This document shows, one piece after another, positions 2,339 through 53,983 of a stretch of 64,000 nt of DNA. Both the position numbers and the translations under genes were made by a program. Numbering within the stretch: the stretch's first letter is position 1; each line of letters opens with the position of its first letter. The stretch covers positions 39,803-103,802 of IMG/VR virus record IMGVR_UViG_2671180139_000002; one strand, written 5' to 3'. The DNA is from a virus. Its lineage: Duplodnaviria > Heunggongvirae > Uroviricota > Caudoviricetes. A model generated the notes under the pieces. It made no database searches and was not told the origin of the DNA. It saw nothing but the letters and a program-made list of their open reading frames with translations.

Positions 2339-2632
2339 CTAGCGTTCGCCGTTCACCTCCTGGTCAAAGATGCGGGCCGTCTCCGCGTCGCGGGCGAAAA
2401 CGGTGCCGGCGAGCGCGTAGACATTGCTTTCACGCCCGAGACGTCCGAACAGCTCCTGGCACGTTTCGGCGATCGCGCGTTCCTGGGACGAAGCGGCGCG
2501 GAACCACCAGCGCCGATCGTTCTGCCCCCAACCGGTGCGGCGGAGATCGAGGTTGGTCTTCGGATACAAGAGAGTGTCTGCCACCATAGCGAAAGCGTCC
2601 TTGCGCGAATTAGCGATTAGAAGATGCCCCAC
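2339..2632 (-). CDS. hypothetical protein
   Basis: 97-aa ORF with a GTG start; a TTAGCGA element lies immediately upstream. Confidence 0.3.
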   Translation of the reverse strand: MGHLLIANSRKDAFAMVADTLLYPKTNLDLRRTGWGQNDRRWWFRAASSQERAIAETCQELFGRLGRESNVYALAGTVFARDAETARIFDQEVNGER

Positions 2633-3033
2633 GCCGCTGCGCGGGTGTCTTGAGCAGGCTGGAACGAAGACCCACCCTCCCCGGTTCGGTCCGCGATCTC
2701 GCTATTTCGCGAAATCGGGCCTTCGTCAACTGCCTTCCCACCCTCCGCCATGATGCCGAGGAGTTGCTGGACGTAGTTCGGCAGGATGCGTCGAGCGCGC
2801 GCAAGCTGCCGCGGCGTCATGTGATCCCTGTATCGGGGTAGCGCCTGGGCAACCGATGTCAGGAAGTCGGCGTCGGCCTTGTCCACGAACGTGGCGCCTC
2901 GGGCGCACAGTTGCCCGATGGCGCGAGCCACCGCCTTATCGCTGCGTTGCAGGAGATCGAGGATATCCTGCGCGGTCCAGACCTTGCTCTCGGTCATGTC
3001 AGTCGCTCTCGTGCGTTGCGTTGCATCGAACAT
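2617..3033 (-). CDS. hypothetical protein with C-terminal WGIF tail
   Basis: Ends ...AAAWGIF-COOH, the same C-terminal motif seen in five other small proteins of this window. Confidence 0.45.
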   Translation of the reverse strand: MFDATQRTRATDMTESKVWTAQDILDLLQRSDKAVARAIGQLCARGATFVDKADADFLTSVAQALPRYRDHMTPRQLARARRILPNYVQQLLGIMAEGGKAVDEGPISRNSEIADRTGEGGSSFQPAQDTRAAAWGIF

Positions 3034-9632: not shown

Positions 9633-9651
9633 GGTCAATATTGACTTATCA
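9633..9651. promoter_or_regulatory. conserved palindromic motif instance (GGTCAATATTGACTTATCA)
   Basis: Member of the GATAAGTCA-N4-TGACTTATC family; overlaps the rIIB stop codon. Confidence 0.5.
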
Positions 9652-10986: not shown

Positions 10987-13343
10987 TCTGCGTTCGTCTC
11001 CGTCTTGGGCTGGTTTGTGGTCGCTTTGGCCGCTTTCTCGACCAGGGGAAGGATGATCTCGAGGCTCTCGGTCGTGGTCTCGAAGGATGGGGTTTTGAGC
11101 ACTGCCGCCAGCGGTCTGAGGTGAGCCAGACGCACCGTCAGCTTCGCTCGCTCTTTAAGATCGCGAATTCGCGGTTCCGCTTTTTCAAGAACAGCGTCCA
11201 CGAGCTTCTTGAACCGTTCCTGACGCTCGCACTCCTCGTTGTAGTTTCCGGCCATCGAGTAGGAGCCGCCGGGCTTTACCCGGAACAACAAGCTGGCGCA
11301 GAGGATCAAATCCCAGCACGCATCTGCACCTTTGCTGGCGCGATAAGGCTCGGCGAAGGCCGCGTACGCCGCGCGCCGAGAATGCAACATGAGTTCGGAT
11401 GCGAGCACGCTCTCCGGGTCTCGATGCATTATGGCTTCGTGACACTGCGCCGCCATCAGCATGAAGACGTCCTCGGGACGCGGCTTCTTCAGCCGTTTCT
11501 CCAGGCGCTCAAGGATGATGTCCTCGATAGCTCTCGCGCCTGAATCCAGGAGCTTCTTCTGCTCCCGGATCCCGGTAATCAGTGCCGTCGCCGGAACCAG
11601 CTTGTTCAACAGGCGAATGCAGAACTGTGGCTGGCTTGTCGCACCGAACGAGACGGCAGGCACATCGTGGTGCGAGTATTTGGACATTGCCAGGAATGCC
11701 GCTGGCTCGGCGAGCGTCTTTGGCCGGTCCACATAGGCTCGTTTCTCATACGCACTGACCGCCAGGTCCGCGAGCGCGAGGTACTTGGGCTTGTTATCGA
11801 TCACCGTCGCTGGATCAGGCTTCGGCTTCTTCTCCCGCTTGATGCGATCGAGGAGCTCGGTGGTCATACCGTGCTTGGCCGCCCGCTCCCGGATATCCTT
11901 CAGTTCGGCTTCGCCGAGCTTGGGATCGATCAGAAAGTAGCCAACTCCGCCCCTCTTGAGCGCCGTTTCGCGGTTTGGCGCGATAACCAAATGCAGTTGC
12001 GTCATCGCCTGTTGATCAGACGGGGACTGGTGGCCGTAGCTGTCGTCCGACTTGCGAATTGGAAGCAGCCGCCCGGTCTTCTTCTCCCGGTAGAAGAGCC
12101 GCCCCATGTGGTTCGCGCCCGTCACTCGCAGCGTCCGGCGGCGGACCTGTTCGATGGCCTCGTCACGGAAGGTGCCAGGATAGGGCCATTTCTTGTAGCG
12201 GCGCGCGAACTCACGGCGATGATCGGGAAATCGGCTAACCGCGTAGCGCCCAAAATCCGCTGACTTGATCGTTCTCGTCTTAGCTATGGCGATGGCGATC
12301 TCGTCGGCGCCGGCGTGGACCCGCCGATCGATTTTCTCACCGGTAAAGTCGAAGTCCGCCAGAGTCAGTCGAGTGACGTTCTTGAGCCGCGCTTCGATGA
12401 CCCTGTTCGTCTCGCGCTTCCCGATCGCCTGAACCTCATGCACGAGCTTCCGCAGAACTCTCTTGAGAGTAGCGATTGTGAGATCGTCCATCTGCAGGTC
12501 TTCGCGAGAGGGCGTGACCGAGATCGTGTCCGGTTCAGCGCAGACCACCAGACCCATCCAATCGATGCAGAGCGCCTCCGCTTGACGCTGGAGCGTCCTG
12601 AGCTCCGTCGAGTCACGAAGCGGATACAGGACGTTCCCATAAAGGACGTGAATGCCCTGAAGGTTGGGAACCAGGCCGTAGCCTTGCTTCCGCAATTCCG
12701 CGTAATCGTAGTGATTAAGCAGCTCGCCGTTCAGCTCCACCTTGATGCCACTGTTCCTTGCGTCGGCTTTAATGATGCGCTCGAACTCCAAGCGGTGATC
12801 CAGCAGCCGCTCGACTGTCAGCGGGATCGTGACCGTCAGACCACTCTCGTCCGTCGGCGTGGACACCATCGGCCGCACCGCGGGCAAGCCGCCCGTGCTT
12901 TCGTCGCCGATGTGCATGGCGTAGATGGTCTTGACGCCTTCATGGCAGCTCGCGACCGTGAAGTGATCGGTATAGGCAAAGGGTGACTTCGACCCGAGGC
13001 CGAAGCCGCCGGTTTGGGTAGAGTCAGCGGTCTTGGTGGAGCCGAAATAGGTGGCGTAGATCTCCTCGATCCGGTCGTCAGCGATGCCGGGGCCGAAATC
13101 CTGGATCGTAAGCGCGGTTTCCGTCAGCGTGACCTTCACCGGCAGGTCCGGTTGACCCACCATGATGTGCGCATCGATCGCGTTCCGGACGACCTCGCGC
13201 ACGACGGCGAGCTTCTTGTCGCGGTAGAGCGCGTCGGACAGGATCTTGAAGGCATGTGCGGAAGCAGCGATTTGAAAGTTGCGGGCTGCACCGCCTCCGA
13301 CAATCGCGTAGTTGTTGTTCTCCGCAAGCGCATTTACTTGCAT
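10983..13343 (-). CDS. rIIA: rIIA lysis-inhibition protein (GHKL/HATPase-like N-terminus)
   Basis: N-terminal VREVVRNAIDAH...IQDFGPGI...GGFGLGSKS are histidine-kinase-like ATPase motifs typical of rIIA; 786 aa; rIIB adjacent. Confidence 0.8.
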   Translation of the reverse strand: MQVNALAENNNYAIVGGGAARNFQIAASAHAFKILSDALYRDKKLAVVREVVRNAIDAHIMVGQPDLPVKVTLTETALTIQDFGPGIADDRIEEIYATYFGSTKTADSTQTGGFGLGSKSPFAYTDHFTVASCHEGVKTIYAMHIGDESTGGLPAVRPMVSTPTDESGLTVTIPLTVERLLDHRLEFERIIKADARNSGIKVELNGELLNHYDYAELRKQGYGLVPNLQGIHVLYGNVLYPLRDSTELRTLQRQAEALCIDWMGLVVCAEPDTISVTPSREDLQMDDLTIATLKRVLRKLVHEVQAIGKRETNRVIEARLKNVTRLTLADFDFTGEKIDRRVHAGADEIAIAIAKTRTIKSADFGRYAVSRFPDHRREFARRYKKWPYPGTFRDEAIEQVRRRTLRVTGANHMGRLFYREKKTGRLLPIRKSDDSYGHQSPSDQQAMTQLHLVIAPNRETALKRGGVGYFLIDPKLGEAELKDIRERAAKHGMTTELLDRIKREKKPKPDPATVIDNKPKYLALADLAVSAYEKRAYVDRPKTLAEPAAFLAMSKYSHHDVPAVSFGATSQPQFCIRLLNKLVPATALITGIREQKKLLDSGARAIEDIILERLEKRLKKPRPEDVFMLMAAQCHEAIMHRDPESVLASELMLHSRRAAYAAFAEPYRASKGADACWDLILCASLLFRVKPGGSYSMAGNYNEECERQERFKKLVDAVLEKAEPRIRDLKERAKLTVRLAHLRPLAAVLKTPSFETTTESLEIILPLVEKAAKATTNQPKTETNAE

Positions 13344-19767: not shown

Positions 19768-20199
19768 TCAGAAAATTCCCCACAGTGGGTTGGAATGGTT
19801 GCGCCGCTTCAGTTCGGCGGCTTGCTGGGCAGCCTGCTGCGCGCGCTCTTCGGCAATTTCACGGGTGGTAGCGGCGAGCGCCTTGTGACCGTCGATGCCG
19901 ATTTTCCAGACGACGCTGCCGTCGCCAGTGTTGCAGAACTGGAGACCGTGAAAGACGCCGAACTCGTGGGTCACCTTCGGCACCACGGTCATCGGCGGAA
20001 CAAGCGTCAGTCTACCTTCGGCGCCCGGTCTCGCCACCTTGATGCTGTGGCGCTTCCGCTGAACACCGGTGCTACTGACACGGAGCGTGGTGACTAGCTC
20101 GAACGTCTTGCCGTTGACGCAGAAAACGTCATCCCCGATCCCGGCAAGTTCGACTTTTCGAGCGCAGAGCTCCATCAGTTCGCGGCAGATGATCATCAA
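19768..20199 (-). CDS. WGxF-tail family protein (paralog A)
   Basis: Ends NPLWGIF-COOH; VELAGIGDDVFCVNGKTFELV is paralogous to VPLYGVDGMKFRLRDATFELV in 20196..20789. Confidence 0.5.
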   Translation of the reverse strand: MMIICRELMELCARKVELAGIGDDVFCVNGKTFELVTTLRVSSTGVQRKRHSIKVARPGAEGRLTLVPPMTVVPKVTHEFGVFHGLQFCNTGDGSVVWKIGIDGHKALAATTREIAEERAQQAAQQAAELKRRNHSNPLWGIF

Positions 20200-20789
20200 A
20201 AAAGCCCCCAGTCCGGGTTCTCGGCCTGCCTGGCCTTGCGTTCCTTCTCCTCCCGGATCGCGATGCGCTTGCGTTGCACGCGGCCCTTGGCGAGTGCCTG
20301 ATCGAGAACGGATTGAGGAATGACGTCCCAGTGGCTCATGTGCTCGGCCGTGAATTGGACGAGGCCGCCGAGCTCCTCAAAGGTGATGGTGCCGACCTCG
20401 TCGCGCAGGTCGAAGATCGCCGGAACGTCGAGAACTTCGTAGTGGACTTGCGAACTCACCCTACGAGAGAGACGCCCCGTTGGCTTGCTTCGCGACTTGC
20501 CGCCGAACACCGCCCAGGTGTGCGTGGTAAAGACGTCTTCCAGCAGAAGACCCTGAAAGTGCGTTCCGTCAGGCAGCTCAGTTCCGAAGGCGGATGTTGG
20601 ACGAACGATCGCCACCGGCTTCGAGGCAAAACCACCCTTCTGCTCTAAGGCGGGGCGGATAGCACGCGCGTGCTTGCCATCCGGCACCAGCTCGAAGGTG
20701 GCATCTCGCAGACGAAACTTCATGCCGTCGACGCCGTAAAGCGGCACCGTCTTCCCGAGGATTGCGCGAAGCTCGTCGTGGAGCTGCAT
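20196..20789 (-). CDS. WGxF-tail family protein (paralog B)
   Basis: Ends NPDWGLF-COOH; the N-terminal domain is paralogous to 19768..20199. Confidence 0.5.
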   Translation of the reverse strand: MQLHDELRAILGKTVPLYGVDGMKFRLRDATFELVPDGKHARAIRPALEQKGGFASKPVAIVRPTSAFGTELPDGTHFQGLLLEDVFTTHTWAVFGGKSRSKPTGRLSRRVSSQVHYEVLDVPAIFDLRDEVGTITFEELGGLVQFTAEHMSHWDVIPQSVLDQALAKGRVQRKRIAIREEKERKARQAENPDWGLF

Positions 20790-21238
20790 CAGAACATGCC
20801 CCAGGATCGGTTCTGCTCGTACTTGCCGACTTCTTCGACCTGGTGAGCGTCTTCGCGGGCCTGCTTATGCTCCTTGAGGAACTTCGAGCGCGCCTTCGAC
20901 CAGCCGAGCTTCGCATCCTGGCCGAGGATCTCGATCAAGACATCCTCCAGGCCCTTGCAAACCTCGAACGCCTGCTTGTCGCCGAGCTCCATCTGCACAA
21001 AGCCCTGCGCGTCGAAGGGCTCGAACTCGATGATGTACTGGGCGCGCTTACCGGGACGAATACCCTTCAGAAGGAAGTCCTCGCCGCCGACGAACTTCTG
21101 GCTCTTGTAGGTGCCGCCTTCCTTCAGGATCGAGGCCGTGACCGGGCCGCTGAGGCTCGCGCCGAACTTGTCGCTGCGCTTTGCGAGCGCCTGATTGATC
21201 TCCTCGACGATCGGGTCGACGGTGGTGCTTGTCGTCAT
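20789..21238 (-). CDS. WGxF-tail family protein
   Basis: Ends NRSWGMF-COOH; a palindromic motif sits 10 nt upstream of its ATG. Confidence 0.5.
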   Translation of the reverse strand: MTTSTTVDPIVEEINQALAKRSDKFGASLSGPVTASILKEGGTYKSQKFVGGEDFLLKGIRPGKRAQYIIEFEPFDAQGFVQMELGDKQAFEVCKGLEDVLIEILGQDAKLGWSKARSKFLKEHKQAREDAHQVEEVGKYEQNRSWGMF

Positions 21239-31510: not shown

Positions 31511-32359
31511 TTACTTCCCGATGCTGATCATCGGGGTGGAGCCTCCGGGAACCATCGTGGAGGGGAGCTTGCCGTCCCAGCGTTCCGCCTGGGTCAGAGC
31601 TACGAGGTTGGGGTTGTCGCGCAGGGCATCGCCGCGAGCCTTGATGGCGGCCGCTTCGGCTTCGCCGCGCTTCTGCGTGGCATAGGCGTCAGCGTCGGCC
31701 GCGGCGCGCACCGAGTCTGCCTTGGCCTGGGCCTGCGTGACGGTGATCTGGGCCTGGACCTTCTCGCGCTGGGCGTTCTGCTGGAGCTTCTCGACTTCGA
31801 TCTGCGCCTGCATCCGCTGCTCGATCGAGGCGACGTACTGCGGGCTGAACGTGATCTCCTCGATCTGCACGCCCTCGACCACGACCGGGCCGTCGACCGA
31901 CTTCGCGATCGCGTCGAACACCTGCTGGTTCAGCTTGGCCCGGTCCTGGATGGCCTGCTGCGCGGTGAAGCGGCCGAACACGTTCTTGAACTGCTGCTGG
32001 ATGCGCGGCTGAATGAGACGGCTCTCGACGTTCTCAGCGTTGCGGAACTCCGCGTAGATCGCCTGCACCTTGCCGGGATCCAGGTGGTAGTTCACCGACA
32101 CGCGGATGTTCGCCGGCTGCTGATCGGAACTGTAGGCTTCCATCTGATCGATGGTCACGACCTGCATCTGCACCGGAAGCCGGGCGATGCTCTCGATGAT
32201 CGGCACGTTGAAATGAAGGCCGGGCTGCGCTTCACCGACGATGGCACCGTTGCGCAGGATCACGCCGCGTTCGCCGGCGTCGATTGAGCTGGCGCTGGAG
32301 AAGGCCAAAATACCGACGAAGAGAGCGGCGCCGGCGAGCAGAATTGCCTTGGGTTTCAT
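31511..32359 (-). CDS. SPFH/band-7 (prohibitin/HflC-like) membrane protein
   Basis: N-terminal TM anchor followed by an SPFH core (VVTIDQMEAYSSDQ..., coiled-coil tail). Confidence 0.75.
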   Translation of the reverse strand: MKPKAILLAGAALFVGILAFSSASSIDAGERGVILRNGAIVGEAQPGLHFNVPIIESIARLPVQMQVVTIDQMEAYSSDQQPANIRVSVNYHLDPGKVQAIYAEFRNAENVESRLIQPRIQQQFKNVFGRFTAQQAIQDRAKLNQQVFDAIAKSVDGPVVVEGVQIEEITFSPQYVASIEQRMQAQIEVEKLQQNAQREKVQAQITVTQAQAKADSVRAAADADAYATQKRGEAEAAAIKARGDALRDNPNLVALTQAERWDGKLPSTMVPGGSTPMISIGK

Positions 32360-33398: not shown

Positions 33399-36300
33399 TT
33401 AGGCGATGAGATCCGCGACCTTGGCGAAGACCTCGTTCAGGGCGAGCTGTTTGTCGCGATCGTGGTAGATTTCGCCAGGGTTGAAGCCGATGACGACGTT
33501 GGCGTCGAACTGCTCGCTGTAGACGATCTTGCCCGCCGCATCCGACGCCTTGCCCTTGAAGTCAGGGAAGAACTGGCGAACGACGGTGGAGCCGAGCAGG
33601 ACGATCACCGGAGGCTTCAGGAGATCCAGCTCGCGCTGCAGATAGGGCGCGTAGGTCGCGATCTCCTCGGGCGAGACCTGCTTGCCTTCCTTCGGCCGCT
33701 TGATCAGCGCGGTCCAATAGCCATCGGCACGGGCGAGACCCGCCTCCGACAGGGCTTCCGCCGTGTAGCCGAAGCTTTCTGCGAACGCCATGACGCCAAG
33801 ACGCTCCTCGCCGTTGGTGGGCGCGTCGGTGATCGCCACGAACTTCGCCTGTTTGCCGAAAGTGATCTTCACCGGCATCCCGTCGGTTTCCCCGGGCGAC
33901 GGCGCTGCTGGTCCATGCGCGCTCCGGTATTCTGCCATGAGCTCCGCGATCTTCACCTTGGTGGGTCTGTCCGTGTGCATGTCGCGGTGGACAGGCACGA
34001 CGGCGTCGATCAGCCCTGGAATGAACTCGATCTGATCCTTGATGCGGCTCGGGTCGCGAGCGGACAGAGAGCCTGGCACAATGCGCGCGAAGACGCCCAC
34101 CTTGTCCATCACCTCCATCTTGCCCTTATGGACCAGGCGCTTGTTCACGGCCGCGGTGAACTCCTCCAGCGACGCGAACTTGCCGCCGACGCTCTTGCGC
34201 GCCTCCACGATCGCCTTTGCTGCGTTTTCCGAGAGACCCTTGATGCGCGTGAAGGGGATGCAGAGCTTGGTGTCGGTCAGGATCTCGAACTGCTCGGTCG
34301 ACAAGTTGAGGTCCGGGAGCACGATTTCGATGCCGAGCCGCTCCGCGTCCTTCAGGAGACCGGGGAGCTTCTCCTCGTTCATCAGAGACAGCGCCGCAGC
34401 GAAGAACTCGACGGGGTAGTTCGTCTTCAGCCACATCGACTGATAGGAGATCAGCGTGTACTCGACCGAGTGGCTCTTGTTGAAGCCGTAGCCCGCGAAA
34501 GCGGAAATCTTCTCGAAAATGTCGCCCGCCTGGCTCTCTCCCAGCCCGTGCGTCGCCTTGCAGCCTTCGACGAACTTGTCCTTCTGCTTCGCCATCTCCT
34601 CGGGCAGCTTCTTGCCCATGATCTTGCGCAGCTTGTCGGCTTCAGCCATCGAGTAGCCGGCGAGATCGCGAGCCACCTGCATGACCTCTTCCTGGTAGAC
34701 CATGACGCCGTAGGTGTCCTTCAGCGCGTCGGTTATACTGGGATGGTCGAATTCGACCGTCTCCAGGCCCTGCTTGCGCAGGTAGTAGGAGTCCATCATC
34801 CCGGAATCCATCGGGCCCGGACGATAGAGTGCGGTCGCGGCCGTGATGTCGTCGAAGGTGATGGTGCCGTCCTTGCCGAGCTCACGCAGCAGGCGCCGCA
34901 TTCCGCCGGACTCGAACTGGAAAATGCCGGTCGTGATGCCCTTCGCGAAGTTGTCCAGCACCGCTTCGTCATCAAGCGGGATGCGCATGAGGTCGACCCG
35001 CTTGCCGTGACGCTCGCGGATGTATTTCAGGGTCAGATTGATGAGGTCCAGGGTGCTGAGACCCAGGATGTCCATCTTGACCAAGCCCTGATCCTCCACG
35101 ACGCGCTTGTCCCAGCAGACCACGCTTTCACCCTTGCGCCGCTCGATGACGGCGCGCTCCACCAGATCGCAGCCACCCACGACGATGCCGGCGGCGTGCT
35201 GACCAAGAGTGCGCGTGACACCCTCGACGCTGAGGCAGATGTCCCAGATCTCCGGGTTTCGATCCCGGAACTGGCCGATCTCGGCGACCTGATCGGCGGA
35301 ATCCTTCAGCTTCACGGACTGCCCGTGTTCCTTGGGTGCCAACTTGGAGCAGCGATAATCGTTCTCGCTGAGCCCGCAGACGCGCGAGACGTCGCGGATG
35401 GCCGCTGCCGGCCCAAGCGCGATGAAGTTGGCGACGCCGGCGACGCGCTTGCTGCCGTACTTCTCGACCAGGTATTCCACGACCTCATGCCGGCGCTCGG
35501 ACATGAAGTCGAGGTCGGCGTCGGGAAGGTCGATACGATCAGGGTTGATGAAGCGCTCGAACAGCAGACCGAAGCGGATCGGGTCGCAGTCGGTGATCCC
35601 CATCAGATAAGCCACGAGCGAGCCGCCGACGGAGCCGCGCCCTGGACCAACCAGAATGCCGTTGGATTTGGCGAACTGCACCACGTCCTGCACCAGCAGG
35701 AAGTAGCCGGAGAAGGAGAGCTTCTTGAGAACCTCCAGCTCGTAGGCGAGGCGGGGCCGATAGACGTCCCTCAGCTCCTCAGCCGTGGGTTTGTGGCCGA
35801 AGACCGACGAACCGAACCGCTTGGCCCAGCCCCCCTTGCACTCATTCACCACCGCCAGGAACTCGTTCGGCGCCATCGTGGGCAGTGAGACCGGCGCCTT
35901 GGCCCAGGAATAGGTCACCATGTCGGCAAGCCGGGCCGTGTTCTTGAGACCCTGGGTGAAGCAGGCGCCTGGGTCGGTCACGCCGCGGGCTTTCAGCCGG
36001 GTGATCGCGCCCTTGCACTCACCGGCGAGTTCCGACATCGAGAGCGGATGAAGATCGCGGGAGAAGGGTGAATTGTGCCAGCCGTCCGTGATCTTCACGT
36101 TGCGGGTGACCGCGTTCATGATCTCGGCCGCGTCGGCGCCCTCCTTCAGATAGGAGGCGGGGCGCGTGGTCAGAAACTCGCAGCCGAGCGCCTCCGCCGC
36201 GGCGATCGCGCGCTTGTTCAGCGTGTCCCAATACGGCGCGTTGATCGGCGTCAGCGTCAAGAACACGTTGCGAGCGCTCAGAGCGTCAACGCACTTGCGC

Positions 36301-36776
36301 AGTATGTCGAGCGCGTCAGCATGATGGAGCACGCTGTAAGCGTCGCTAGACGCGATTGCGACGTCATCCGACGTGACGTCTTCAAGCGCTGCGAACAAGT
36401 CAGCGAAGCTCAGCTTCGGGTTGTTGTAGAAGCGCTCCTCGGAGTTGGCGAGGGTGAGCAGCCGGAAGAGAGCGTGAAGCCCCTTCTCCGACAGCACGTA
36501 CCAGGTCAGATAGAACTCCGGCGGGGCCTTCTTGTCCTCCTTGGTCTTGCGCCAGGAGGGATCGTTGACCAGGCGCAGGCGGCAACCGATGATCGGCTTG
36601 ATTTCCGCCGCCTTGGCCTTGTTGGTGAAGTCGATCAGCCCGGTCACGGACATGGTGTCGGTGATCGCAACGGCCTTGGCACCCAGGGCCTTGGCACCGT
36701 CGACCAGCTTCTCGACCGTCAGAATGGATTCGCCGATCGAGAAATTCGTCCGCGCCGCCAGAATGGAATGCATCAT
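33399..36776 (-). CDS. dnaE: DnaE-type DNA polymerase III alpha subunit with C-terminal UDG-family-4-like domain
   Basis: N-terminal PHP domain; polymerase-core motifs (FERFINPDR, GYGFNKSHS); the C-terminal ~190 aa match family-4 uracil-DNA-glycosylase architecture. Confidence 0.85.
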   Translation of the reverse strand: MMHSILAARTNFSIGESILTVEKLVDGAKALGAKAVAITDTMSVTGLIDFTNKAKAAEIKPIIGCRLRLVNDPSWRKTKEDKKAPPEFYLTWYVLSEKGLHALFRLLTLANSEERFYNNPKLSFADLFAALEDVTSDDVAIASSDAYSVLHHADALDILRKCVDALSARNVFLTLTPINAPYWDTLNKRAIAAAEALGCEFLTTRPASYLKEGADAAEIMNAVTRNVKITDGWHNSPFSRDLHPLSMSELAGECKGAITRLKARGVTDPGACFTQGLKNTARLADMVTYSWAKAPVSLPTMAPNEFLAVVNECKGGWAKRFGSSVFGHKPTAEELRDVYRPRLAYELEVLKKLSFSGYFLLVQDVVQFAKSNGILVGPGRGSVGGSLVAYLMGITDCDPIRFGLLFERFINPDRIDLPDADLDFMSERRHEVVEYLVEKYGSKRVAGVANFIALGPAAAIRDVSRVCGLSENDYRCSKLAPKEHGQSVKLKDSADQVAEIGQFRDRNPEIWDICLSVEGVTRTLGQHAAGIVVGGCDLVERAVIERRKGESVVCWDKRVVEDQGLVKMDILGLSTLDLINLTLKYIRERHGKRVDLMRIPLDDEAVLDNFAKGITTGIFQFESGGMRRLLRELGKDGTITFDDITAATALYRPGPMDSGMMDSYYLRKQGLETVEFDHPSITDALKDTYGVMVYQEEVMQVARDLAGYSMAEADKLRKIMGKKLPEEMAKQKDKFVEGCKATHGLGESQAGDIFEKISAFAGYGFNKSHSVEYTLISYQSMWLKTNYPVEFFAAALSLMNEEKLPGLLKDAERLGIEIVLPDLNLSTEQFEILTDTKLCIPFTRIKGLSENAAKAIVEARKSVGGKFASLEEFTAAVNKRLVHKGKMEVMDKVGVFARIVPGSLSARDPSRIKDQIEFIPGLIDAVVPVHRDMHTDRPTKVKIAELMAEYRSAHGPAAPSPGETDGMPVKITFGKQAKFVAITDAPTNGEERLGVMAFAESFGYTAEALSEAGLARADGYWTALIKRPKEGKQVSPEEIATYAPYLQRELDLLKPPVIVLLGSTVVRQFFPDFKGKASDAAGKIVYSEQFDANVVIGFNPGEIYHDRDKQLALNEVFAKVADLIA

Positions 36777-42876: not shown

Positions 42877-43467
42877 ATGAACTGGTATTTGAAGGCGATG
42901 CGCCGCTACTTCGAGTGGCGTGGTCGATCGGCGCGGGCCGAGTTTTGGTACTTCACGCTCTTTTATCTGATAATCTCCTTCCTCAGCGGTGTGGTCGATT
43001 ACCTCCTTGGCTACACCGATGTCGATCAGCTTACCCCGGTAAACACCCTGGTGATCCTGGTCCACATCATCCCGACGATCACCGTCTCCATCCGCCGCTT
43101 TCATGATAGAGATCAGAGCGGCTGGCGGACACTCGGTCTCATCGTTCCGATCGCCAATCTGGTGCTGCTCGCTGACCTCGCCCGAAGGGGAACAGACGGG
43201 CCCAATCGATTTGGCGACGATCCGCTCGACCCCATTGCCGATCCTCACGTCCATTCTCGTCTTCTTCAAGCTGGCGCCCCTAGAAGCGTACCTGTTGTCA
43301 ACCCGAGAAGACCCACATTCACTTCTCACAACGCCGCCGTACCCAGCTCCAGCAACAGCTTGATTGAAGAGATCGAGCGTTTGGATCAGCTTCGGCGAAA
43401 CGGCGTCATCTCCGAGCAGGAGTTCGATCGTCTGAAAGCCAACACCATGAAGCGAGCTGACGCATAA
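42877..43467 (+). CDS. DUF805-family inner-membrane protein with C-terminal SHOCT domain
   Basis: MNWYLKAMRRYFEWRGRSARAEFWYF...IRRFHDRDQSGW is the DUF805 signature; C-terminal LIEEIERLDQLRRNGVISEQEFDRLKAN is SHOCT-like. Confidence 0.7.
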   Translation: MNWYLKAMRRYFEWRGRSARAEFWYFTLFYLIISFLSGVVDYLLGYTDVDQLTPVNTLVILVHIIPTITVSIRRFHDRDQSGWRTLGLIVPIANLVLLADLARRGTDGPNRFGDDPLDPIADPHVHSRLLQAGAPRSVPVVNPRRPTFTSHNAAVPSSSNSLIEEIERLDQLRRNGVISEQEFDRLKANTMKRADA

Positions 43468-43898
43468 TGAACCCCGACGTTTCTACGGGCCTTCTGCTCA
43501 TCGTCATCCTGATTGCGCTCTATCTGTTGCCCGCGATCATCGCCTTCTCACGAGGGCACCATAACCGGGTCGCCATCCTCGTTCTCAACTTGCTGCTGGG
43601 ATGGTCAGTTCTCGGTTGGATCGCCGCGCTGGTTTGGTCGTTCACGGCGGTCGAGCGTGCGCCAGGCGTCATTTATACCGATCAGCGAGCCCGTGAGCCA
43701 CGAACCGTTCGTATTGAGCCCGTTTCGCCCGTTCGGCAGATCGAACCTGTGGTGTCGGCCGAACCGCCGGCGAGCTTAGACGGGGCCGATATCGAAGAGC
43801 ATTTGCGCCATCTTGAGGCGTTAAGAGGTCGCGGCGTGATCACCGAGGAAGAACTGCGCGAACTCAGGCTGAAGGCGATCAGCCACTCCGTCCGATAG
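43467..43898 (+). CDS. superinfection immunity (Imm-family) membrane protein with C-terminal SHOCT domain
   Basis: LYLLPAIIAFSRGHHNRVAILVLNLLLGWSVLGWIAALVWSF matches the Imm_superinfect signature; C-terminal LRHLEALRGRGVITEEELRELRLKA is SHOCT-like. Confidence 0.65.
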   Translation: MNPDVSTGLLLIVILIALYLLPAIIAFSRGHHNRVAILVLNLLLGWSVLGWIAALVWSFTAVERAPGVIYTDQRAREPRTVRIEPVSPVRQIEPVVSAEPPASLDGADIEEHLRHLEALRGRGVITEEELRELRLKAISHSVR

Positions 43899-44929: not shown

Positions 44930-46102
44930 GTGAACGGCATCGCTTTGCCTGAAAACGGGGAATTGATGCAGACCGTCCCATCGGGCGGCCGACGGCTCAC
45001 GCCTGCCGTTTTGGCCGGGAGAGAACTCGCGTTCGAGAAAGAGCGCACCGTCTCTCGTAAGGAATTGGCGCAAACCGCTCGTGAAGCTGAGAAAGCTCTC
45101 TCGCTGCGGCCCGGGCTGCGTCTGGTCCTCCATGAGCTTGTTGGCTCTTGGGGCGAACAGGACTTCGAGGGCAAGCTTCTGGTCTGGCCGTCGAATGATT
45201 ACCTGGTCGCGCGCACCGGCTTGTCGGAACGCACCGTGCGGTATGCGGTCAGCCAGCTTGTGGAGCTGCAGCTCGTCTCCTCGAAGGACTCCGCGAATGG
45301 GAAGCGCTTCGCTATTCGCGATCGCGCCGGCGAGATCGTGGACGCCTTCGGCTTCGACCTGACGCCTCTCTATGCGCGCCGGGGAGAGTTCACTGCCGAG
45401 ATCGAGCGCCAGAAGCTCGCGCGTGACGCCCAGGGGCGCTTGTTCGACCAGATTACGATCTGTCGCCGGGCGACGGAGGAAGCGCTCAGCGCGCTCGCGG
45501 AGCATTTCCCGGGTGTCGTCACTGCTGATCTGATCGAAGCGCTGGATGAGCTTCGCGAGCGTACTCCGCGACGTGGTTCCATGCGGCCAATCGAACGGCT
45601 TGTCGGTGAGTGGTTAGAGATCCGAAGGCTTGCCGAGAAGCGCTATTATGAGTCCGCCAATGGCGGCAATTCTTGCCGCCACAAAGAAACAAACAACGAC
45701 TCCCCTAGTGAGTCTTGTACAAAGGTCGATGAGGGAGTTGGTTCAGCGGAACGGCCCGTTTCCCTCACACTCGGCCTCGTATTGGATGCCTGCCCTGCCC
45801 TTTCGATGTATCCGCGGCCGATCCGCAGCGAAAATGACCTGATCGACGCTGGAAAGCATCTTCGATCCATGCTGAGCGCACATCCGAGCGCCTGGCGAGA
45901 GGCCGTTGAGGCGATCGGACCCGTGCGAGCTGCCGGCGCCGTTGCTCTCGTGCTCCAGCTCTATGAAGACGATCAGGCCGCGGGCACGAACCGGATCCGA
46001 AATCCTGGCGGCTACTTCCGAGCCATGGTGCGCATGGTCGCCGAGGGCCGGGTCGACCTGCAGACGGAGATCATCGCGCTTCGGAAACGTCGGCTCTGCT
46101 GA
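44930..46102 (+). CDS. repC: RepC-like plasmid replication initiator (repABC family)
   Basis: LLVWPSNDYLVARTGLSERTVRYAVSQLVELQLVSSKDSANGKRFAIRDRAGEIVDAFGFDLTPLYARRGEF...ICRR aligns closely with RepC proteins; an internal AT-rich stretch lies at ~45640-45730. The true start may be the second Met at 44966. Confidence 0.7.
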   Translation: MNGIALPENGELMQTVPSGGRRLTPAVLAGRELAFEKERTVSRKELAQTAREAEKALSLRPGLRLVLHELVGSWGEQDFEGKLLVWPSNDYLVARTGLSERTVRYAVSQLVELQLVSSKDSANGKRFAIRDRAGEIVDAFGFDLTPLYARRGEFTAEIERQKLARDAQGRLFDQITICRRATEEALSALAEHFPGVVTADLIEALDELRERTPRRGSMRPIERLVGEWLEIRRLAEKRYYESANGGNSCRHKETNNDSPSESCTKVDEGVGSAERPVSLTLGLVLDACPALSMYPRPIRSENDLIDAGKHLRSMLSAHPSAWREAVEAIGPVRAAGAVALVLQLYEDDQAAGTNRIRNPGGYFRAMVRMVAEGRVDLQTEIIALRKRRLC

Positions 46103-49391: not shown

Positions 49392-49594
49392 GCGTGGTGA
49401 TCCTTCTCTCCCATGTAGGATTTGACCGTCATTTCCGGTGTCGTCTTGCCGGGGACTGCGCGCAGCCGGACGCCGTTGAAGCTGACGACGGTATGCAGCC
49501 CGGTGAGGTTGGCGATCCGGTGCATCTCCTCGGCGACATCTCCAAGCTCGGAGCCTGGGAACGGACGAAGCTCAAGTTCGAGCACGGGCCTCAT
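49388..49594 (-). CDS. hypothetical protein
   Basis: 68-aa ORF coupled to the ligase gene (4-nt overlap). Confidence 0.3.
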   Translation of the reverse strand: MRPVLELELRPFPGSELGDVAEEMHRIANLTGLHTVVSFNGVRLRAVPGKTTPEMTVKSYMGEKDHHA

Positions 49595-50289
49595 GCGGCT
49601 CTCCCGGCGGCCGCTCGGGCCCGCTCCAGGAGCGACATGCGCGCCTTGGGCTTCGGGGTCGACGTCGCCGCCGATGCAGCGGGCTCTGCGGACGTCGTCA
49701 TCGCCATGTTGATGGCGGCGGACATATCCCCGCTCTCGGCGGCAAGAACGGCGTCAGCGGGCTCCGGAGCGCGTTCCTTGACGCTCTCGGCCGGAGGCTT
49801 GCGACTGCGACGAGAAACGGGTGCCGTCTCCCGCTGCACATCCTCCAGTTCGACTGACGTTTTGCGGGTCGAGCGCTTGGACTGCTTGCCGCTCACCCAG
49901 GCGCCGGCGGCTTCGTTCGCTGCCAGGATCAGCTCGCGCTCCTTGGGTGTGACGGCATATTCGTCGAGGAGCTTGGGCGAGACCAGGACCGGCATGATCC
50001 GCTCGATGTGACGATCCTTCAGAGAGCCGACGCGCTTCTCGTCAGCATGATACGGATCGTCGGGCAGACGGCCAAAGTCCTGGATGATGTTGTTGATCGG
50101 GCATTTGCTGGCGCTCATGCACGCCTGGCAGCCCTTTCGCTGCTCGGGGCGCCGGCCCTTCCAGACCAGATCGCGCAAGGAGACGCAGGTGGCGAACCGG
50201 GTCTCCACGTTGAAGATCGGACAGACGAAGTGAAAGAGGTTCGCCGGCGACAGCGACTTGCGCCGCATGAGAGCGTATTGAATTCCCAT
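49591..50289 (-). CDS. Cys-rich hypothetical protein
   Basis: CPIF...C...C..C..C cluster in the N-terminal third; acidic/Ala-rich C-terminus. Confidence 0.4.
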   Translation of the reverse strand: MGIQYALMRRKSLSPANLFHFVCPIFNVETRFATCVSLRDLVWKGRRPEQRKGCQACMSASKCPINNIIQDFGRLPDDPYHADEKRVGSLKDRHIERIMPVLVSPKLLDEYAVTPKERELILAANEAAGAWVSGKQSKRSTRKTSVELEDVQRETAPVSRRSRKPPAESVKERAPEPADAVLAAESGDMSAAINMAMTTSAEPAASAATSTPKPKARMSLLERARAAAGRAA

Positions 50290-50585
50290 CAGAACATTCC
50301 CCAGGCTGAAGAGGTGACGACCTCAAGGGCGTCGGCGATCGCATCGAGCTCCGCGGCACTGGCGGCCGCGGCCTCAAGCTTCTCCACGCGGCGTTGGATC
50401 AGGTTGGCGATCTGCTGACCTGGCGCCTTCAGCGCGGTCACGATCTCGGTTTCGGCGGCGAGTTCGGCCATCCGCAGGCCGAAGGCGATCACGTCGCTTG
50501 TTGTCGGAATGAACTCGCCCGGAATGACCGAGCAGAAATCACTCAGCTCCAGTGTCGACGGCGCTATTCCCGCAATACCACCCAT
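50289..50585 (-). CDS. WGxF-tail family protein
   Basis: 98 aa ending SSAWGMF-COOH. Confidence 0.45.
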   Translation of the reverse strand: MGGIAGIAPSTLELSDFCSVIPGEFIPTTSDVIAFGLRMAELAAETEIVTALKAPGQQIANLIQRRVEKLEAAAASAAELDAIADALEVVTSSAWGMF

Positions 50586-51022
50586 CAGAACAGACCCCAG
50601 TCAGGGTTCGCAGCCACGCGATCGGCAACCGTGACTTCGGGCTCGGGCTCTGCTGCGAATGCGTCGTCACTGACCTTGCTGATGCCGCCCCCGAGCATGT
50701 CGACCAGGGTCTTGCCCATCACGGTCCACCAAGCGCCGAGCGCCCCCTTGAGCGCATCGAGATCGACAACCGTCGTATTGAGCTTCGTGAGCTCCCGCTC
50801 GTAGCCGCCGTTCTCCTTCTGCCGGAGCTTGCTGTTGTAGTTGCGCTCGGCGTCCAGGCTGTTCGCGTAACGATCAACCTTGGTCTGGCCCCATGCCTCG
50901 GCCTTGCCCCAGCGGTTCACGACCACCGAGGTGCCGTCGGCCGCGGTCAGTCTGAGCAGGTGATAGTCCTTCGTGCCCTGACGGTGTCTCAACGACACCC
51001 GGCTGACGATTACCGGAAACAT
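50585..51022 (-). CDS. WGxF-tail family protein
   Basis: Ends NPDWGLF-COOH (same heptapeptide as 20196..20789). Start placed at the internal ATG (MFPVIV...), which sits ~22 nt downstream of the motif copy; the track start is 51085. Confidence 0.45.
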   Translation of the reverse strand: MFPVIVSRVSLRHRQGTKDYHLLRLTAADGTSVVVNRWGKAEAWGQTKVDRYANSLDAERNYNSKLRQKENGGYERELTKLNTTVVDLDALKGALGAWWTVMGKTLVDMLGGGISKVSDDAFAAEPEPEVTVADRVAANPDWGLF

Positions 51023-51081: not shown

Positions 51082-52197
51082 TCAACAGTCAAAACTGACT
51101 GATTGTTTTTGATCCGCGTAGTGATTGCGAAGACGCCACTTCACGTCGAGCGTGGCGCTGTAGACTGTCGCCTTGTAGAAGGCGTCCTGGACCACCTCGG
51201 GCAGGACCTCGTTCGGATCGCAGTTCGAGGGCAGCAGCGCGATACGCACCCGCAGTCCGATGCGGCGAAGCTGCTTGGCCGCGTCCAGGGCGGAGACGAG
51301 CGCACGCCATTCGCCGTCCCACATGATCGTGACCTCTTCCAGACCCGCACGCTTGAGCTGCAGGAAGCAGCCGAGCTGATCCTTGCCGTCGACCGAACCG
51401 AAGGATAGGTGCTTGCCGAAGGAACCGATCGGCACGACGTCGCGAAGGTCGATCTTCTCGTCGAAGGCTTTCTTGATCGCCATGACGTCAAAGGCGCCCT
51501 CACCCATCACGACGCGCTTTGCCCGCAAGGCATTCTGCCCGTTGAAGAGGAAGCGCCCGGTGCCAGGAAGCCCCTTGGGAAACAGGTACTTCTCGCTCTG
51601 ATCTCCGATCACATCACGGCCCTGAAACGTCACCAGCTTGCCGTCGAGATCGAACACCGGGATGATCAGGCGATTGACGAACTTCTGACCGCCTTGGGAG
51701 CCATCCTCCTTCAGGAAGTTCCACCATCCGTCCGTGCAAAAGCGGAGATGGAAGAATTTCGCCAGATCGCCGCTGATGCCGCGTTTCTCCAGATAAAGCA
51801 GGTTCTGCCCCTCACCCGTGGGTAGCGGGAACGAAACCGGCAGCTTCACCTCGCCAAACTCGACCGCAGCGGTCGTCGTTCGTTTGGGCTTCCAGCCCTG
51901 CTCCTTCAGAACCTCCCGGACGTGATTGAAGGTCTCCGCCCAGCTCAGGCCCAGGTTCGCGTTCACGAATTTGAGCTTGTTGAAGCCGGCGTTGCAGACG
52001 AAGCAATTGCCGAGCCCGGTCTCCGCGTTGAGATAGACCCGGTAACGACGATCGCCGCACTCCGGGCACTCGCGCATGTTGAGCTGCATACCGGAGGAGC
52101 CGCGCCCCTTTCGGTACGCCAGCCCCTCTCGCTCGCACCAATATTCCAGGTCGAGTTCGTCGGAGAGTTCCTGAGCGTCGCCGCCCCGCTCCGACAT
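51082..52197 (-). CDS. DNA primase (zinc-binding CHC2 plus TOPRIM)
   Basis: CPECGDRRYRVYLNAETGLGNCFVCNAGF is a CHC2 zinc ribbon; a TOPRIM-like acidic core follows. Confidence 0.8.
   Translation of the reverse strand: MSERGGDAQELSDELDLEYWCEREGLAYRKGRGSSGMQLNMRECPECGDRRYRVYLNAETGLGNCFVCNAGFNKLKFVNANLGLSWAETFNHVREVLKEQGWKPKRTTTAAVEFGEVKLPVSFPLPTGEGQNLLYLEKRGISGDLAKFFHLRFCTDGWWNFLKEDGSQGGQKFVNRLIIPVFDLDGKLVTFQGRDVIGDQSEKYLFPKGLPGTGRFLFNGQNALRAKRVVMGEGAFDVMAIKKAFDEKIDLRDVVPIGSFGKHLSFGSVDGKDQLGCFLQLKRAGLEEVTIMWDGEWRALVSALDAAKQLRRIGLRVRIALLPSNCDPNEVLPEVVQDAFYKATVYSATLDVKWRLRNHYADQKQSVSFDC
51086..51101. promoter_or_regulatory. palindrome CAGTCAAAACTGACTG embedded in the primase 3' coding end
   Basis: Encodes QSVSFDC; nested in the larger inverted repeat GGATCAACA...TGTTTTTGATCC. 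Confidence 0.4.
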
Positions 52198-52340
52198 CAG
52201 TTAACGCCCCAGTCGTCCGGGTTGCGGAGGAAATAGTCACCGCGGCGCCGGCGCAGATAGGCCCAGAGCAGAGTGCCGATCGCGCTGCCGCCGATGATGG
52301 CGGCGAGCAACGTTGCCATGAGAGCGTCGAGCATCGTCAT
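52197..52340 (-). CDS. micro-ORF: 47-aa single-TM peptide ending NPDDWGVN
   Basis: Not in the supplied track (under 60 aa). ATG overlaps the helicase stop (ATGA) and its TGA overlaps the primase ATG (TGATG); translation is MTMLDALMATLLAAIIGGSAIGTLLWAYLRRRRGDYFLRNPDDWGVN. Confidence 0.35.
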   Translation of the reverse strand: MTMLDALMATLLAAIIGGSAIGTLLWAYLRRRRGDYFLRNPDDWGVN

Positions 52341-53713
52341 TCCTTTCCGAGAACCTTGGTGAGGAACTTCATCTTCTCCCGGTCCTGCTTGATGCGGAGG
52401 GTGAAGTTGGATTCGCCGTTACGGTGCGCTGCGAAGTAGAGCCTGGCCTCGCCGGACTTGCGCTCCTCCTCCACCGCGTTGATGGAGATGACGATGTCGG
52501 CCGTCCGGATCTTGTTGAAGTCCTCGGCCACGTCCGTCATCTTCGCGACCGTTGCCTTGGCGCCTTCGCGATTGGTCTGGGTCGCGGTCAGAACGGCTGC
52601 GTTGTAGGTAAAGGCAATTGCGCGGAGATCGATGTAGATCTGGCGCATGTCGTCCTTCAGATCGCCCGTGAAGCGCTCCGCGGCCATGATGTCCGCGTAA
52701 TCCACGATGATCAGATCGAAGCTGATGCCCTTGCGACGGAACTGCTCCAGCCGCCGGCGCAGCGCTGAAACCTTGAGAGTGCCGGAAGGGAAGTCCTCGA
52801 TGAAGAACTTGCCGGCCTTCTTACCCGCAGCGTCGATCTTGCCTTTGACGGTATGCGGTGAGTCCTTGAGCAGGCGGATCGCGGTGTCGGCGACGTTCGC
52901 ATCGACGCGATCGGCGATGATCTTCCGGCTGACTTCGAGACTGGCGTAATAGACGTTGTAGCCGAGCAGCGATGCGTTCTTGCCGAACTCGCCCAGCGAC
53001 ATGGACTTGCCCGCTTTCGCGGCGCCCATGAGCACCGAGAGCTCCTTGCGGCCCCAGCCCTGGTGATAGAGGTACTTGTCGAGGTCGGCGATGCCGGTGG
53101 AGATGCCATCGGGCTTGATCAGGCCGGCGGCGAGATCGACGCGCTCAGTGGTGCGGTTCTCAATCTCCGCCCAATAATCGTATGCCTCGCCCTCCTCCGA
53201 AATCCCGACATCCTGGGCCTTCTGGACGATCTTCTCGATCTTGTCGTAGTCGCCCTTGATCAGGAGCTCGGCAGCTTCGAGGATCGCCGTCTCATAAGCC
53301 CGATGACGAGCGAAGCGAGCGACATTGTCGGCCACGAACTCGCGATCGCTGATGTCGGCTGCGAGAACGGTCTTGATGCGCTCCCTGACGTCGTCGACCA
53401 GGTCCTTGCGAATGCGACGATCGAGAACGGCGGATTTCAGGAGCGTGCCGATCGACTTGCGATCCGGCGTGCGCTTGTAGGTGTCGTAATAGTCCAGGGC
53501 GACCTTCGTGATCGCCGCATCAGCCTCGTTTTCAAAATATTCGGGACGGATCAGGCCGTCGGTGCGCTGCGCAAAACCCGCGTCGCGCAGCGCCAGGGCC
53601 ACGATCTTGATCTGGAAGTCCTCGTCGAAGTCGTAGCCGGTGACGGACGCAGAGGTCTCGTCGTCGGCTACGCTCTCCTCGAGCTCCTCATCTTTCACGA
53701 GAGCGAGTGCCAT
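52337..53713 (-). CDS. DnaB-like replicative helicase (T4 gp41-like)
   Basis: N-terminal DnaB-like domain; C-terminal RecA-fold with Walker A GAAKAGKS and arginine finger; 458 aa; adjacent to the primase. Confidence 0.8.
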   Translation of the reverse strand: MALALVKDEELEESVADDETSASVTGYDFDEDFQIKIVALALRDAGFAQRTDGLIRPEYFENEADAAITKVALDYYDTYKRTPDRKSIGTLLKSAVLDRRIRKDLVDDVRERIKTVLAADISDREFVADNVARFARHRAYETAILEAAELLIKGDYDKIEKIVQKAQDVGISEEGEAYDYWAEIENRTTERVDLAAGLIKPDGISTGIADLDKYLYHQGWGRKELSVLMGAAKAGKSMSLGEFGKNASLLGYNVYYASLEVSRKIIADRVDANVADTAIRLLKDSPHTVKGKIDAAGKKAGKFFIEDFPSGTLKVSALRRRLEQFRRKGISFDLIIVDYADIMAAERFTGDLKDDMRQIYIDLRAIAFTYNAAVLTATQTNREGAKATVAKMTDVAEDFNKIRTADIVISINAVEEERKSGEARLYFAAHRNGESNFTLRIKQDREKMKFLTKVLGKE

Positions 53714-53716
53714 CGT

Positions 53717-53983
53717 TTACTCCGCCGGGCGGTAGCCCTGGATGTCGTGCTTAAAGAGAGTCAAAGTCAATACTGACTTATCTTCCCGAATGCGAAGAAG
53801 CAAGGCGTACTGATCGGCTTCGAGGAGCTCGCCTGTCACCTGGGTGCCGTCGCGGAAGAGAACGACGATCTTGCGACCGCGAAGCTCCCGGAGCTGCTGC
53901 TGGTGCGACCAGAGCTTCGGCTTGAACGGCTGACGCTCACCCTTGCGAGCGATCTCGATCGGGCGACGAGTTTCGTTTCTCAT
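53717..53983 (-). CDS. Sm-fold, Hfq-like small protein
   Basis: KIVVLFRDGTQVTGELLEADQYALLLR...VLTLTLFKHDIQ parallels Hfq Sm1/Sm2 ([27 protein letters not shown]...QMVYKHAIS). Confidence 0.4.
   Translation of the reverse strand: MRNETRRPIEIARKGERQPFKPKLWSHQQQLRELRGRKIVVLFRDGTQVTGELLEADQYALLLRIREDKSVLTLTLFKHDIQGYRPAE
53764..53779. promoter_or_regulatory. palindromic motif instance (AAGTCAATACTGACTT) embedded in the 3' end of the Hfq-like gene
   Basis: Encodes EDKSVLTL; ~45 nt upstream of the helicase start. Confidence 0.45.

Follow-up and report, generated by a model that had tools for sequence, protein, structure and literature searches.

A singleton micro-gene between the helicase and primase genes of a phage-like element from Faunimonas pinastri, probably installed at the primase start codon

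Overlapping genes that are translationally coupled through AUGA and UGAUG junctions are known from the trpE-trpD and trpB-trpA pairs of E. coli. Among phage proteins, p16.7 and p1 of Bacillus phage phi29 are membrane-anchored organisers of phage DNA replication, and p16.7, of about 130 residues, carries a folded C-terminal domain that binds DNA and terminal protein and is conserved in phi29-like phages. Short C-terminal tails that dock on a common hub are represented by the gp45-binding tails of T4 and the C-terminal tip of SSB. Here these systems are compared with a very small open reading frame (micro-ORF) situated between the genes for a DnaB-like replicative helicase and a primase in a phage-like element of about 109 kb from Faunimonas pinastri, within a stretch of 64,000 nucleotides (positions 39,803 to 103,802 of IMG/VR record IMGVR_UViG_2671180139_000002), hereafter the window. 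On balance, the micro-ORF appears to be a young, lineage-specific cargo gene that arose from a 137-nucleotide insertion at the primase start codon.

The micro-ORF runs on the minus strand, a detail absent from the initial annotation, from 52340 to a stop codon at 52199-52197 (MTMLDALMATLLAAIIGGSAIGTLLWAYLRRRRGDYFLRNPDDWGVN). As the initial annotation had claimed, its 47 codons fill the helicase-primase gap exactly, the first ATG (ATG1, 52340-52338) overlapping the helicase stop codon (TGA, 52339-52337) in an ATGA and the stop codon meeting the primase start in a TGATG. A second in-frame ATG (ATG2, 52334) is the only one of the two with a Shine-Dalgarno sequence, AGGA at a spacing of six nucleotides. 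The description of the ORF as unannotated holds for the gene track from which that annotation was made, but NCBI and an independent Logan gene call both already list the 45-residue version starting at ATG2, as a hypothetical protein from a Faunimonas pinastri contig of about 109.4 kb. Directly before the TGATG, the final pair of sense codons makes up a GTTAAC palindrome (an HpaI site, 52200-52205).

The origin of the micro-ORF is suggested by comparison with L018, a relative in which no gene separates helicase and primase. The helicase 3' end is nearly identical in the two sequences, and the L018 junction reads GAGGAATGACCGATGTCA, its ATG being the primase start, whereas the window reads AAGGAATGACGATG followed by 137 nucleotides and then TCGGAG. 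An alignment gap stands at the insert in all five of the relatives aligned, GATG flanks the insert at both sides, and the adjoining helicase 3' end and primase 5' end are collinear with those of relatives. The insertion would have landed exactly on the primase start codon, the ancestral ribosome-binding site and ATG becoming the ATG2 site of the micro-ORF. The primase keeps its native N-terminus (MSE...), now at a distance of 137 nucleotides from that ribosome-binding site and behind the TGATG. The primase ATG now has no Shine-Dalgarno sequence of its own (positions -20 to -4 examined). Ribosomes that formerly started the primase would translate the 45-codon ORF, terminate and restart at the UGAUG. 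Primase synthesis would now need termination and reinitiation, which would make the micro-ORF a cis-acting translational relay between the two genes, and probably an attenuator as well.

The two features expected of a relay ORF are both present, as its stop overlaps the next start and that start lacks a Shine-Dalgarno sequence of its own, and the dependence of the primase on the upstream frame is predicted from them. This arrangement resembles the coupling in the trp operon, where the downstream cistron likewise lacks a Shine-Dalgarno sequence and relies on ribosomes that finish the upstream frame. It differs in that the micro-ORF is a 45-codon insert occupying the original initiation site of the primase, and in that the coupling is here deduced from sequence. 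The tight coupling reported earlier is present in the form of the ATGA and TGATG overlaps, but the replisome meaning attached to it does not follow: 19 of the 68 same-strand junctions in the genome are overlaps of one or four nucleotides, so coupling by overlap is a genome-wide style that carries no information specific to the replisome. If the proposed history is right, the locus offers a clean example of an insertion that captures the ribosome-binding site of its neighbour and becomes a relay ORF, which is a plausible way in which phage micro-genes could arise and the ratio of primase to helicase be reset.

The micro-ORF is probably a genuine, translated gene for a small bitopic membrane peptide, as judged from coding statistics and from its initiation site. 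The GC (guanine plus cytosine) fractions at its codon positions 1, 2 and 3 are 0.60, 0.50 and 0.83, the same pattern as in neighbouring genes. By a codon-usage log-likelihood for which 18 confident genes served as training set, its own frame scores +0.487 bits/codon and all five others are negative, compared with a mean of 0.52 bits/codon for real 47-codon windows. Only 0.27% of off-frame windows score higher than the micro-ORF, and not one of 202 spurious open frames (40-90 codons long) reaches its score. A translation signal, whose absence would have counted against the earlier proposal, is found at ATG2 in a good Shine-Dalgarno sequence at the site that serves the primase in L018, and translation is considered likely because the ORF is located on an initiation site functional in relatives. 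The alternative that the frame is open by chance across an intergenic insert and has no product draws on the ORF being a singleton without homologue and on a 46-codon open stretch not being rare at 61% GC (about 0.24 by our own estimate). It has to contend with the codon usage, with a start on the ribosome-binding site and ATG of the L018 primase, with reports of the ORF by two independent gene callers and with the exact fit between stop and start (an open frame bounded in this way by the helicase stop and the primase start having a chance of roughly 0.003, again our own estimate), and is very improbable. An RNA element in place of a gene was ruled out, as the region has no match in Rfam, an ordinary predicted fold (z = -0.53), no promoter found in the insert and terminator-like matches at background level. 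Read-through or fusion of the helicase to the primase was likewise ruled out, since the helicase frame past its TGA scores as non-coding, as was an N-terminal extension of the primase by fusion, because the reading frame of the primase has a TAA two codons ahead of its ATG and the N-terminus MSE... matches relatives.

Table 1. Coordinates of the features at the helicase-primase junction, of the C-terminal tails in the window, and of the cargo found at the same junction in relatives.
Feature	Location	Strand	Basis or remark
Micro-ORF, 47 codons from ATG1 (45 from ATG2) plus stop codon	52197..52340	minus	sequence, codon-usage score, gene calls
TGATG stop/start overlap, micro-ORF and primase	52195..52199	minus	sequence; base A at 52197 common to both
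Shine-Dalgarno AGGA, 6 nucleotides upstream of ATG2	52341..52344	minus	counterpart of the L018 primase ribosome-binding site
DnaB-like replicative helicase, full length compared with relatives	52337..53713	minus	PF03796
Primase, native N-terminus MSE... as in relatives	51082..52197	minus	comparison with relatives
Predicted transmembrane helix, residues ~3-28, including GGSAIG	52257..52334	minus	hydropathy (Kyte-Doolittle, 19-residue window) and AlphaFold2
RRRR right after the helix	52242..52253	minus	sequence
Tail NPDDWGVN of the micro-ORF	52200..52223	minus	out-of-register copy of the family C-terminal motif, Asn at end
Window-specific 137-nucleotide insertion, from ancestral primase ATG (now ATG2) to present primase ATG	52198..52334	minus	L018 comparison, multiple alignment
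Tail NPDWGLF-stop, WGR-domain protein	50585..50608	minus	
Tail SSAWGMF-stop, 98-residue protein	50289..50312	minus	
Tail NRSWGMF-stop, 149-residue protein	20789..20812	minus	
Tail NPDWGLF-stop, 197-residue protein	20196..20219	minus	
Tail NPLWGIF-stop, 143-residue protein	19768..19791	minus	
Tail AAAWGIF-stop, 138-residue protein	2617..2640	minus	
Junction cargo: HNH/NUMOD4 homing endonucleases	L006, L024		
Junction cargo: 120-residue Cys-rich ORF	L022		
Junction cargo: 93-residue ORF	L028		
Junction cargo: 67-residue two-helix membrane peptide and 64-residue ORF	L026		
Junction cargo: 72-residue lipoprotein-like peptide and 124-residue ORF	L029		
Junction cargo: 75-residue ORF and 51-residue membrane peptide	L031		
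Junction cargo: 44-residue signal-peptide-like ORF, two tiny hydrophobic ORFs, 43-residue ORF	L023		
Junction cargo: six small genes, the first with a transmembrane helix	phage nickie (L014)		

In 24 distinct relatives the helicase-primase junction was inspected. The two genes overlap or abut in 15 of them (RHEph10, N1_10, V1VFA-S, B1VFA, L004, L005, L007, L010, L011, L018, L019, L025, L027, L030 and L032), and unrelated cargo occupies the junction in the other nine (Table 1). On this comparison the junction is a permissive, variable slot. The micro-ORF itself is present in none of the 24, and since the slot is either empty or filled with unrelated cargo, it is best described as a singleton passenger. 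No homologue was found in the databases searched: a word-indexed search of 5.8 billion clustered proteins returned the micro-ORF protein itself only, phmmer against 1.84 billion representatives added two repeat proteins judged spurious, and Pfam, PHROGs, NCBIfam and PADLOC gave no family (two non-significant NCBIfam matches, E at least 0.26). Comparison with the other cargo peptides of the slot showed no likeness to any. Searches with tblastn and blastn against phages and plasmids produced chance matches in GC-rich stretches only and no donor for the insert, and blastn of the insert against the window gave no internal donor either. The primase belongs to a large family, with 1,286 matches at E <= 1e-60, the nearest being 71% identical.

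These results divide the original proposal, which had taken the ORF for a small gene coupled to helicase and primase and had read its position as that of a replisome-associated membrane or tether peptide. The small gene looks real and is coupled to both neighbours, but a replisome-associated role finds no support, given an ORF seen in no relative, a spacer that varies freely and a tail without its anchoring aromatic residue (see below). Of the three findings named in advance as refuting the proposal, two were made, an ORF not conserved in related genomes and a freely varying spacer, and the third, a lack of any translation signal, was not. As a find it is ordinary: the variable slot of a phage replication operon holds a singleton micro-gene of the accessory kind. 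Its peptide would be released into the membrane as an accessory passenger and would form no part of the replisome, being one of many unrelated genes that come to lie in the slot. The situation is reminiscent of accessory moron genes and free-standing homing endonucleases that have inserted between conserved genes of phages. Unlike a self-contained cassette, the insert is only 137 nucleotides long, lacks a promoter and terminator of its own and is threaded into a chain of translational coupling.

The single transmembrane helix and basic stretch described in the initial annotation are borne out by the analysis of the predicted peptide. Hydropathy reaches a maximum of 2.01 at residues 7-25 (Kyte-Doolittle, 19-residue window), followed by RRRR, and AlphaFold2 models a single helix over residues 3-39 with a mean pLDDT (predicted local distance difference test) of 81. 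After the arginines comes a 14-residue tail ending in NPDDWGVN. The peptide would be a single-pass inner-membrane peptide with its N-terminus out and its C-terminus in, leaving about 19 cytoplasmic residues; the cytoplasmic placement of the C-terminus follows from the positive-inside rule, because RRRR comes after the helix. Within the tail, YFLR resembles the FtsZ C-terminal peptide (AFLR), a likeness of three residues only. The micro-ORF product shares with p16.7 of phi29 its small size, an N-terminal transmembrane helix and a gene situated among those for replication. However, it differs from p16.7 in its short cytoplasmic portion, in having no folded C-terminal domain and no homologue, and in its absence from all relatives inspected.

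A membrane peptide of this kind might act in trans as an independent moron-type effector, with an envelope job of its own, separate from replication and from the tails discussed below, such as superinfection exclusion or modulation of host membrane proteins. Its codon usage is like that of real genes, the helix contains a GxxxG-like helix-packing motif (GGSAIG), and small membrane proteins are common cargo of the slot and of other parts of the element, among them the Imm_superinfect and DUF805 proteins near repC. Yet there is no family match and no homologue to point to such a function, and the resemblance of its tail to those of other proteins of the element would be left unexplained, so that this alternative is unlikely.

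That resemblance concerns a C-terminal peptide shared by many proteins of the element and its relatives. Six window proteins, the micro-ORF not counted, end in W-G-[L/M/I]-F (Table 1). A survey of the window together with 25 related sequences (299 kb) yielded 46 tails in the 26 sequences and none on the opposite strands, with the consensus [N/H]-P-x-[W/F/Y]-G-x-[F/W]-COOH. N occurs at position -7 in 33 of the tails and P at -6 in 25, both positions being outside the search pattern, and a terminal aromatic residue, with at most one Gly after it, is found in all 46 (F in 37, W in 9). Early soluble proteins bearing such a tail number at least six in the window element and at least seven in Rhizobium phage RHEph10; further tail loci include L015 (30629, 30895) and L016 (6793, 28966, 31115, 33767, 34087), among many others. 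The flavour of the tail is uniform within a phage and differs between phages, being FGRF in RHEph10, WG[LMI]F in the window and WG[SA]W in L004, which suggests a co-evolving receptor, probably phage-encoded. The tails of the element resemble a shared docking peptide, such as those of T4 and SSB, and the micro-ORF ends in an incomplete copy of it. The literature was searched both for these tail sequences and for phage docking motifs already described, with no relevant result, and this shared tail, borne by many early proteins in a large group of ~110-kb phage-like elements from Hyphomicrobiales, is apparently undescribed.

Several explanations of the tails were rejected. The bacterial beta-clamp-binding motif is Q-phi-x-[L/M]-[F/L], with an aliphatic residue at position 2 (PMC11139829), and by this definition DWGLF and NFGRF fail at positions 1 and 2, and the tails often fail at position 4 as well, as they have no Gln, an aromatic residue at position 2, frequently Arg or Ser at position 4, and Trp at the end. 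The micro-ORF pentapeptide DWGVN fails at positions 1, 2, 4 and 5. A phage-encoded sliding clamp as receptor was set aside, none having been found among the window proteins. That the W-G codons (TGGGG) are simply the ribosome-binding site of the next gene was dismissed because relatives replace W by F or Y.

The echo of these tails in the micro-ORF is non-random. The six-frame translation contains NPD(D)WG at just three places, all of them gene C-termini, and the expected number of NPDDWG-type matches over about 80 genes is about 1.6e-4. To this extent the similarity to NPDWGLF noted previously stands, but the copy is out of register by one residue and has no terminal aromatic. W44-G45 occupies positions -4/-3, as the tail family requires, whereas the extra Asp (NPDDWG compared with NPDWG) places N-P at -8/-7 in the micro-ORF instead of -7/-6. 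The peptide ends in Asn, and a search that allows any final residue turns up no other N-P...W-G tail without a terminal aromatic. Moreover, all 13 true-tail proteins checked are soluble, with hydropathy maxima on the same scale of at most 1.15, compared with the value given above for the micro-ORF. At the DNA level, identity between the micro-ORF and true tails is confined to AACCCGGAC...TGGGG...TGATG, and is so limited that descent and convergence are indistinguishable. Because the invariant terminal aromatic is missing, the micro-ORF tail probably does not dock as the true tails do; the NPDDWG ending would be a decayed or borrowed copy of the C-terminal docking tail of the phage family. As a natural F-to-N, out-of-register variant, it would provide a ready-made negative or weak control peptide in a search for the receptor.

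Derivation of the micro-ORF tail from the primase 3' end (LRNP compared with a conserved WRLRNPY) was also considered and rejected, as there is no DNA similarity. Near the primase C-terminus (51082-51140, minus strand) relatives have a conserved W-R-L-[RK]-[ND]-P-[YF] and the window WRLRNHY, in which the Pro is lost; its likeness to FLRNP of the micro-ORF is probably a coincidence.

The tail bears most directly on the possibility that the peptide is a membrane tether or decoy, its cytoplasmic NPDDWG tail binding the receptor of the NP-x-W-G-x-F tails, which, together with replication or recombination proteins, would be held at the inner membrane or for which the peptide would compete with the soluble tail proteins. 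The non-random match, a predicted topology that puts the tail in the cytoplasm as for the soluble tail proteins, the location of the gene inside the replication operon and the recurrence of small membrane peptides in the slot (L023, L026, L029, L031 and nickie) are in keeping with such a role. However, a terminal aromatic present in every true tail is lacking here and the N-P pair is displaced, the recurring slot peptides of the other lineages carry no tail-like motif, and relatives with an empty slot replicate all the same. A tether or decoy function is thus decidedly unlikely. In a broader version, the membrane peptides behind the helicase in these five lineages and the window would be a convergent class, of which the window member, by virtue of its tail copy, serves as tether or decoy; this is something of a long shot, although, if true, the window peptide would link replication or recombination proteins to the inner membrane through the tail receptor.

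The interpretation of the micro-ORF as a young cargo gene created by an insertion, and serving in cis as a relay, has to accommodate several points that weigh against it. No donor sequence was found for the insert, and the micro-ORF is known from a single sequence. Its good codon usage implies some coding history and sits uneasily with an insert that is both neutral and very recent. The NPDDWG match exceeds what chance would give, and the tail may therefore have an unseen function. Furthermore, small membrane or secreted peptides, non-homologous to that of the window, are found in the slot of the five other lineages named above. With the window included, six of the eight occupied slots that hold no endonuclease contain a small membrane, lipoprotein-like or signal-peptide ORF, all mutually dissimilar, a hint that the slot may favour small membrane peptides, although the enrichment is weak (p roughly 0.03-0.07 against a base rate of about 17%) and was noticed post hoc.

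The window has a GC content of 61% and is transcribed mostly from the minus strand. The micro-ORF lies in a phage-type replication module, which comprises, in gene order, PhoH, a phrog_2500 protein, an Sm/Hfq-like protein, DnaB, the micro-ORF, primase, the WGR-domain protein, the 98-residue protein, a DUF8312 protein and an ATP-dependent ligase. Beyond these genes come a DnaE-type polymerase with a fused UDG-like domain, a gp32-like SSB, a 5'-3' exonuclease, proteins resembling RecA, SbcC and RuvC, ribonucleotide reductase and rIIA/rIIB-like proteins. Rhizobium phages RHEph10, RHph_N1_10, V1VFA-S and B1VFA have a collinear module that is about 69% identical in nucleotide sequence, and Pseudomonas phage nickie has a more distant one. 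A repABC-type RepC initiator (44930-46102, plus strand) lies in a lower-GC patch on the opposite strand, next to the Imm_superinfect and DUF805 membrane proteins (42877-43898, plus strand), and repC is also present in RHEph10. Many genome assemblies of Hyphomicrobiales have a homologue of the primase on a contig of 107-120 kb; one such case is CP006993.1, a complete replicon of Methylobacterium sp. AMS5. Together, repC and these contigs suggest that the phage group persists as phage-plasmids.

Other observations concern individual genes. The DnaE-type Pol III alpha with its C-terminal UDG-like domain (33399-36776, minus strand) has QIEFI after the HhH domain, at the place of the internal clamp-binding motif of E. 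coli alpha; no sliding clamp gene was recognised in the window. The DUF8312 protein (49591-50289, minus strand) is encoded downstream of the WGR gene. Its relatives end in a conserved GD[LM]xAAIN (L004 5795-6310, L005 5892-6446, L006 5719-6240, L011 5686-6246), after which the window protein continues for about 40 further residues rich in Ala and Ser. The gene for the 88-residue Sm/Hfq-like protein (53717-53983, minus strand; weak Hfq and LSM matches) is the one next upstream of the helicase; small ORFs hold this position in several of the related loci that were inspected, and also in nickie. Membrane-associated proteins of the replication/nucleotide module include an SPFH/Band-7 protein with an N-terminal hydrophobic helix (31511-32359, minus strand) and the rIIA/rIIB-like proteins (9649-13343, minus strand).

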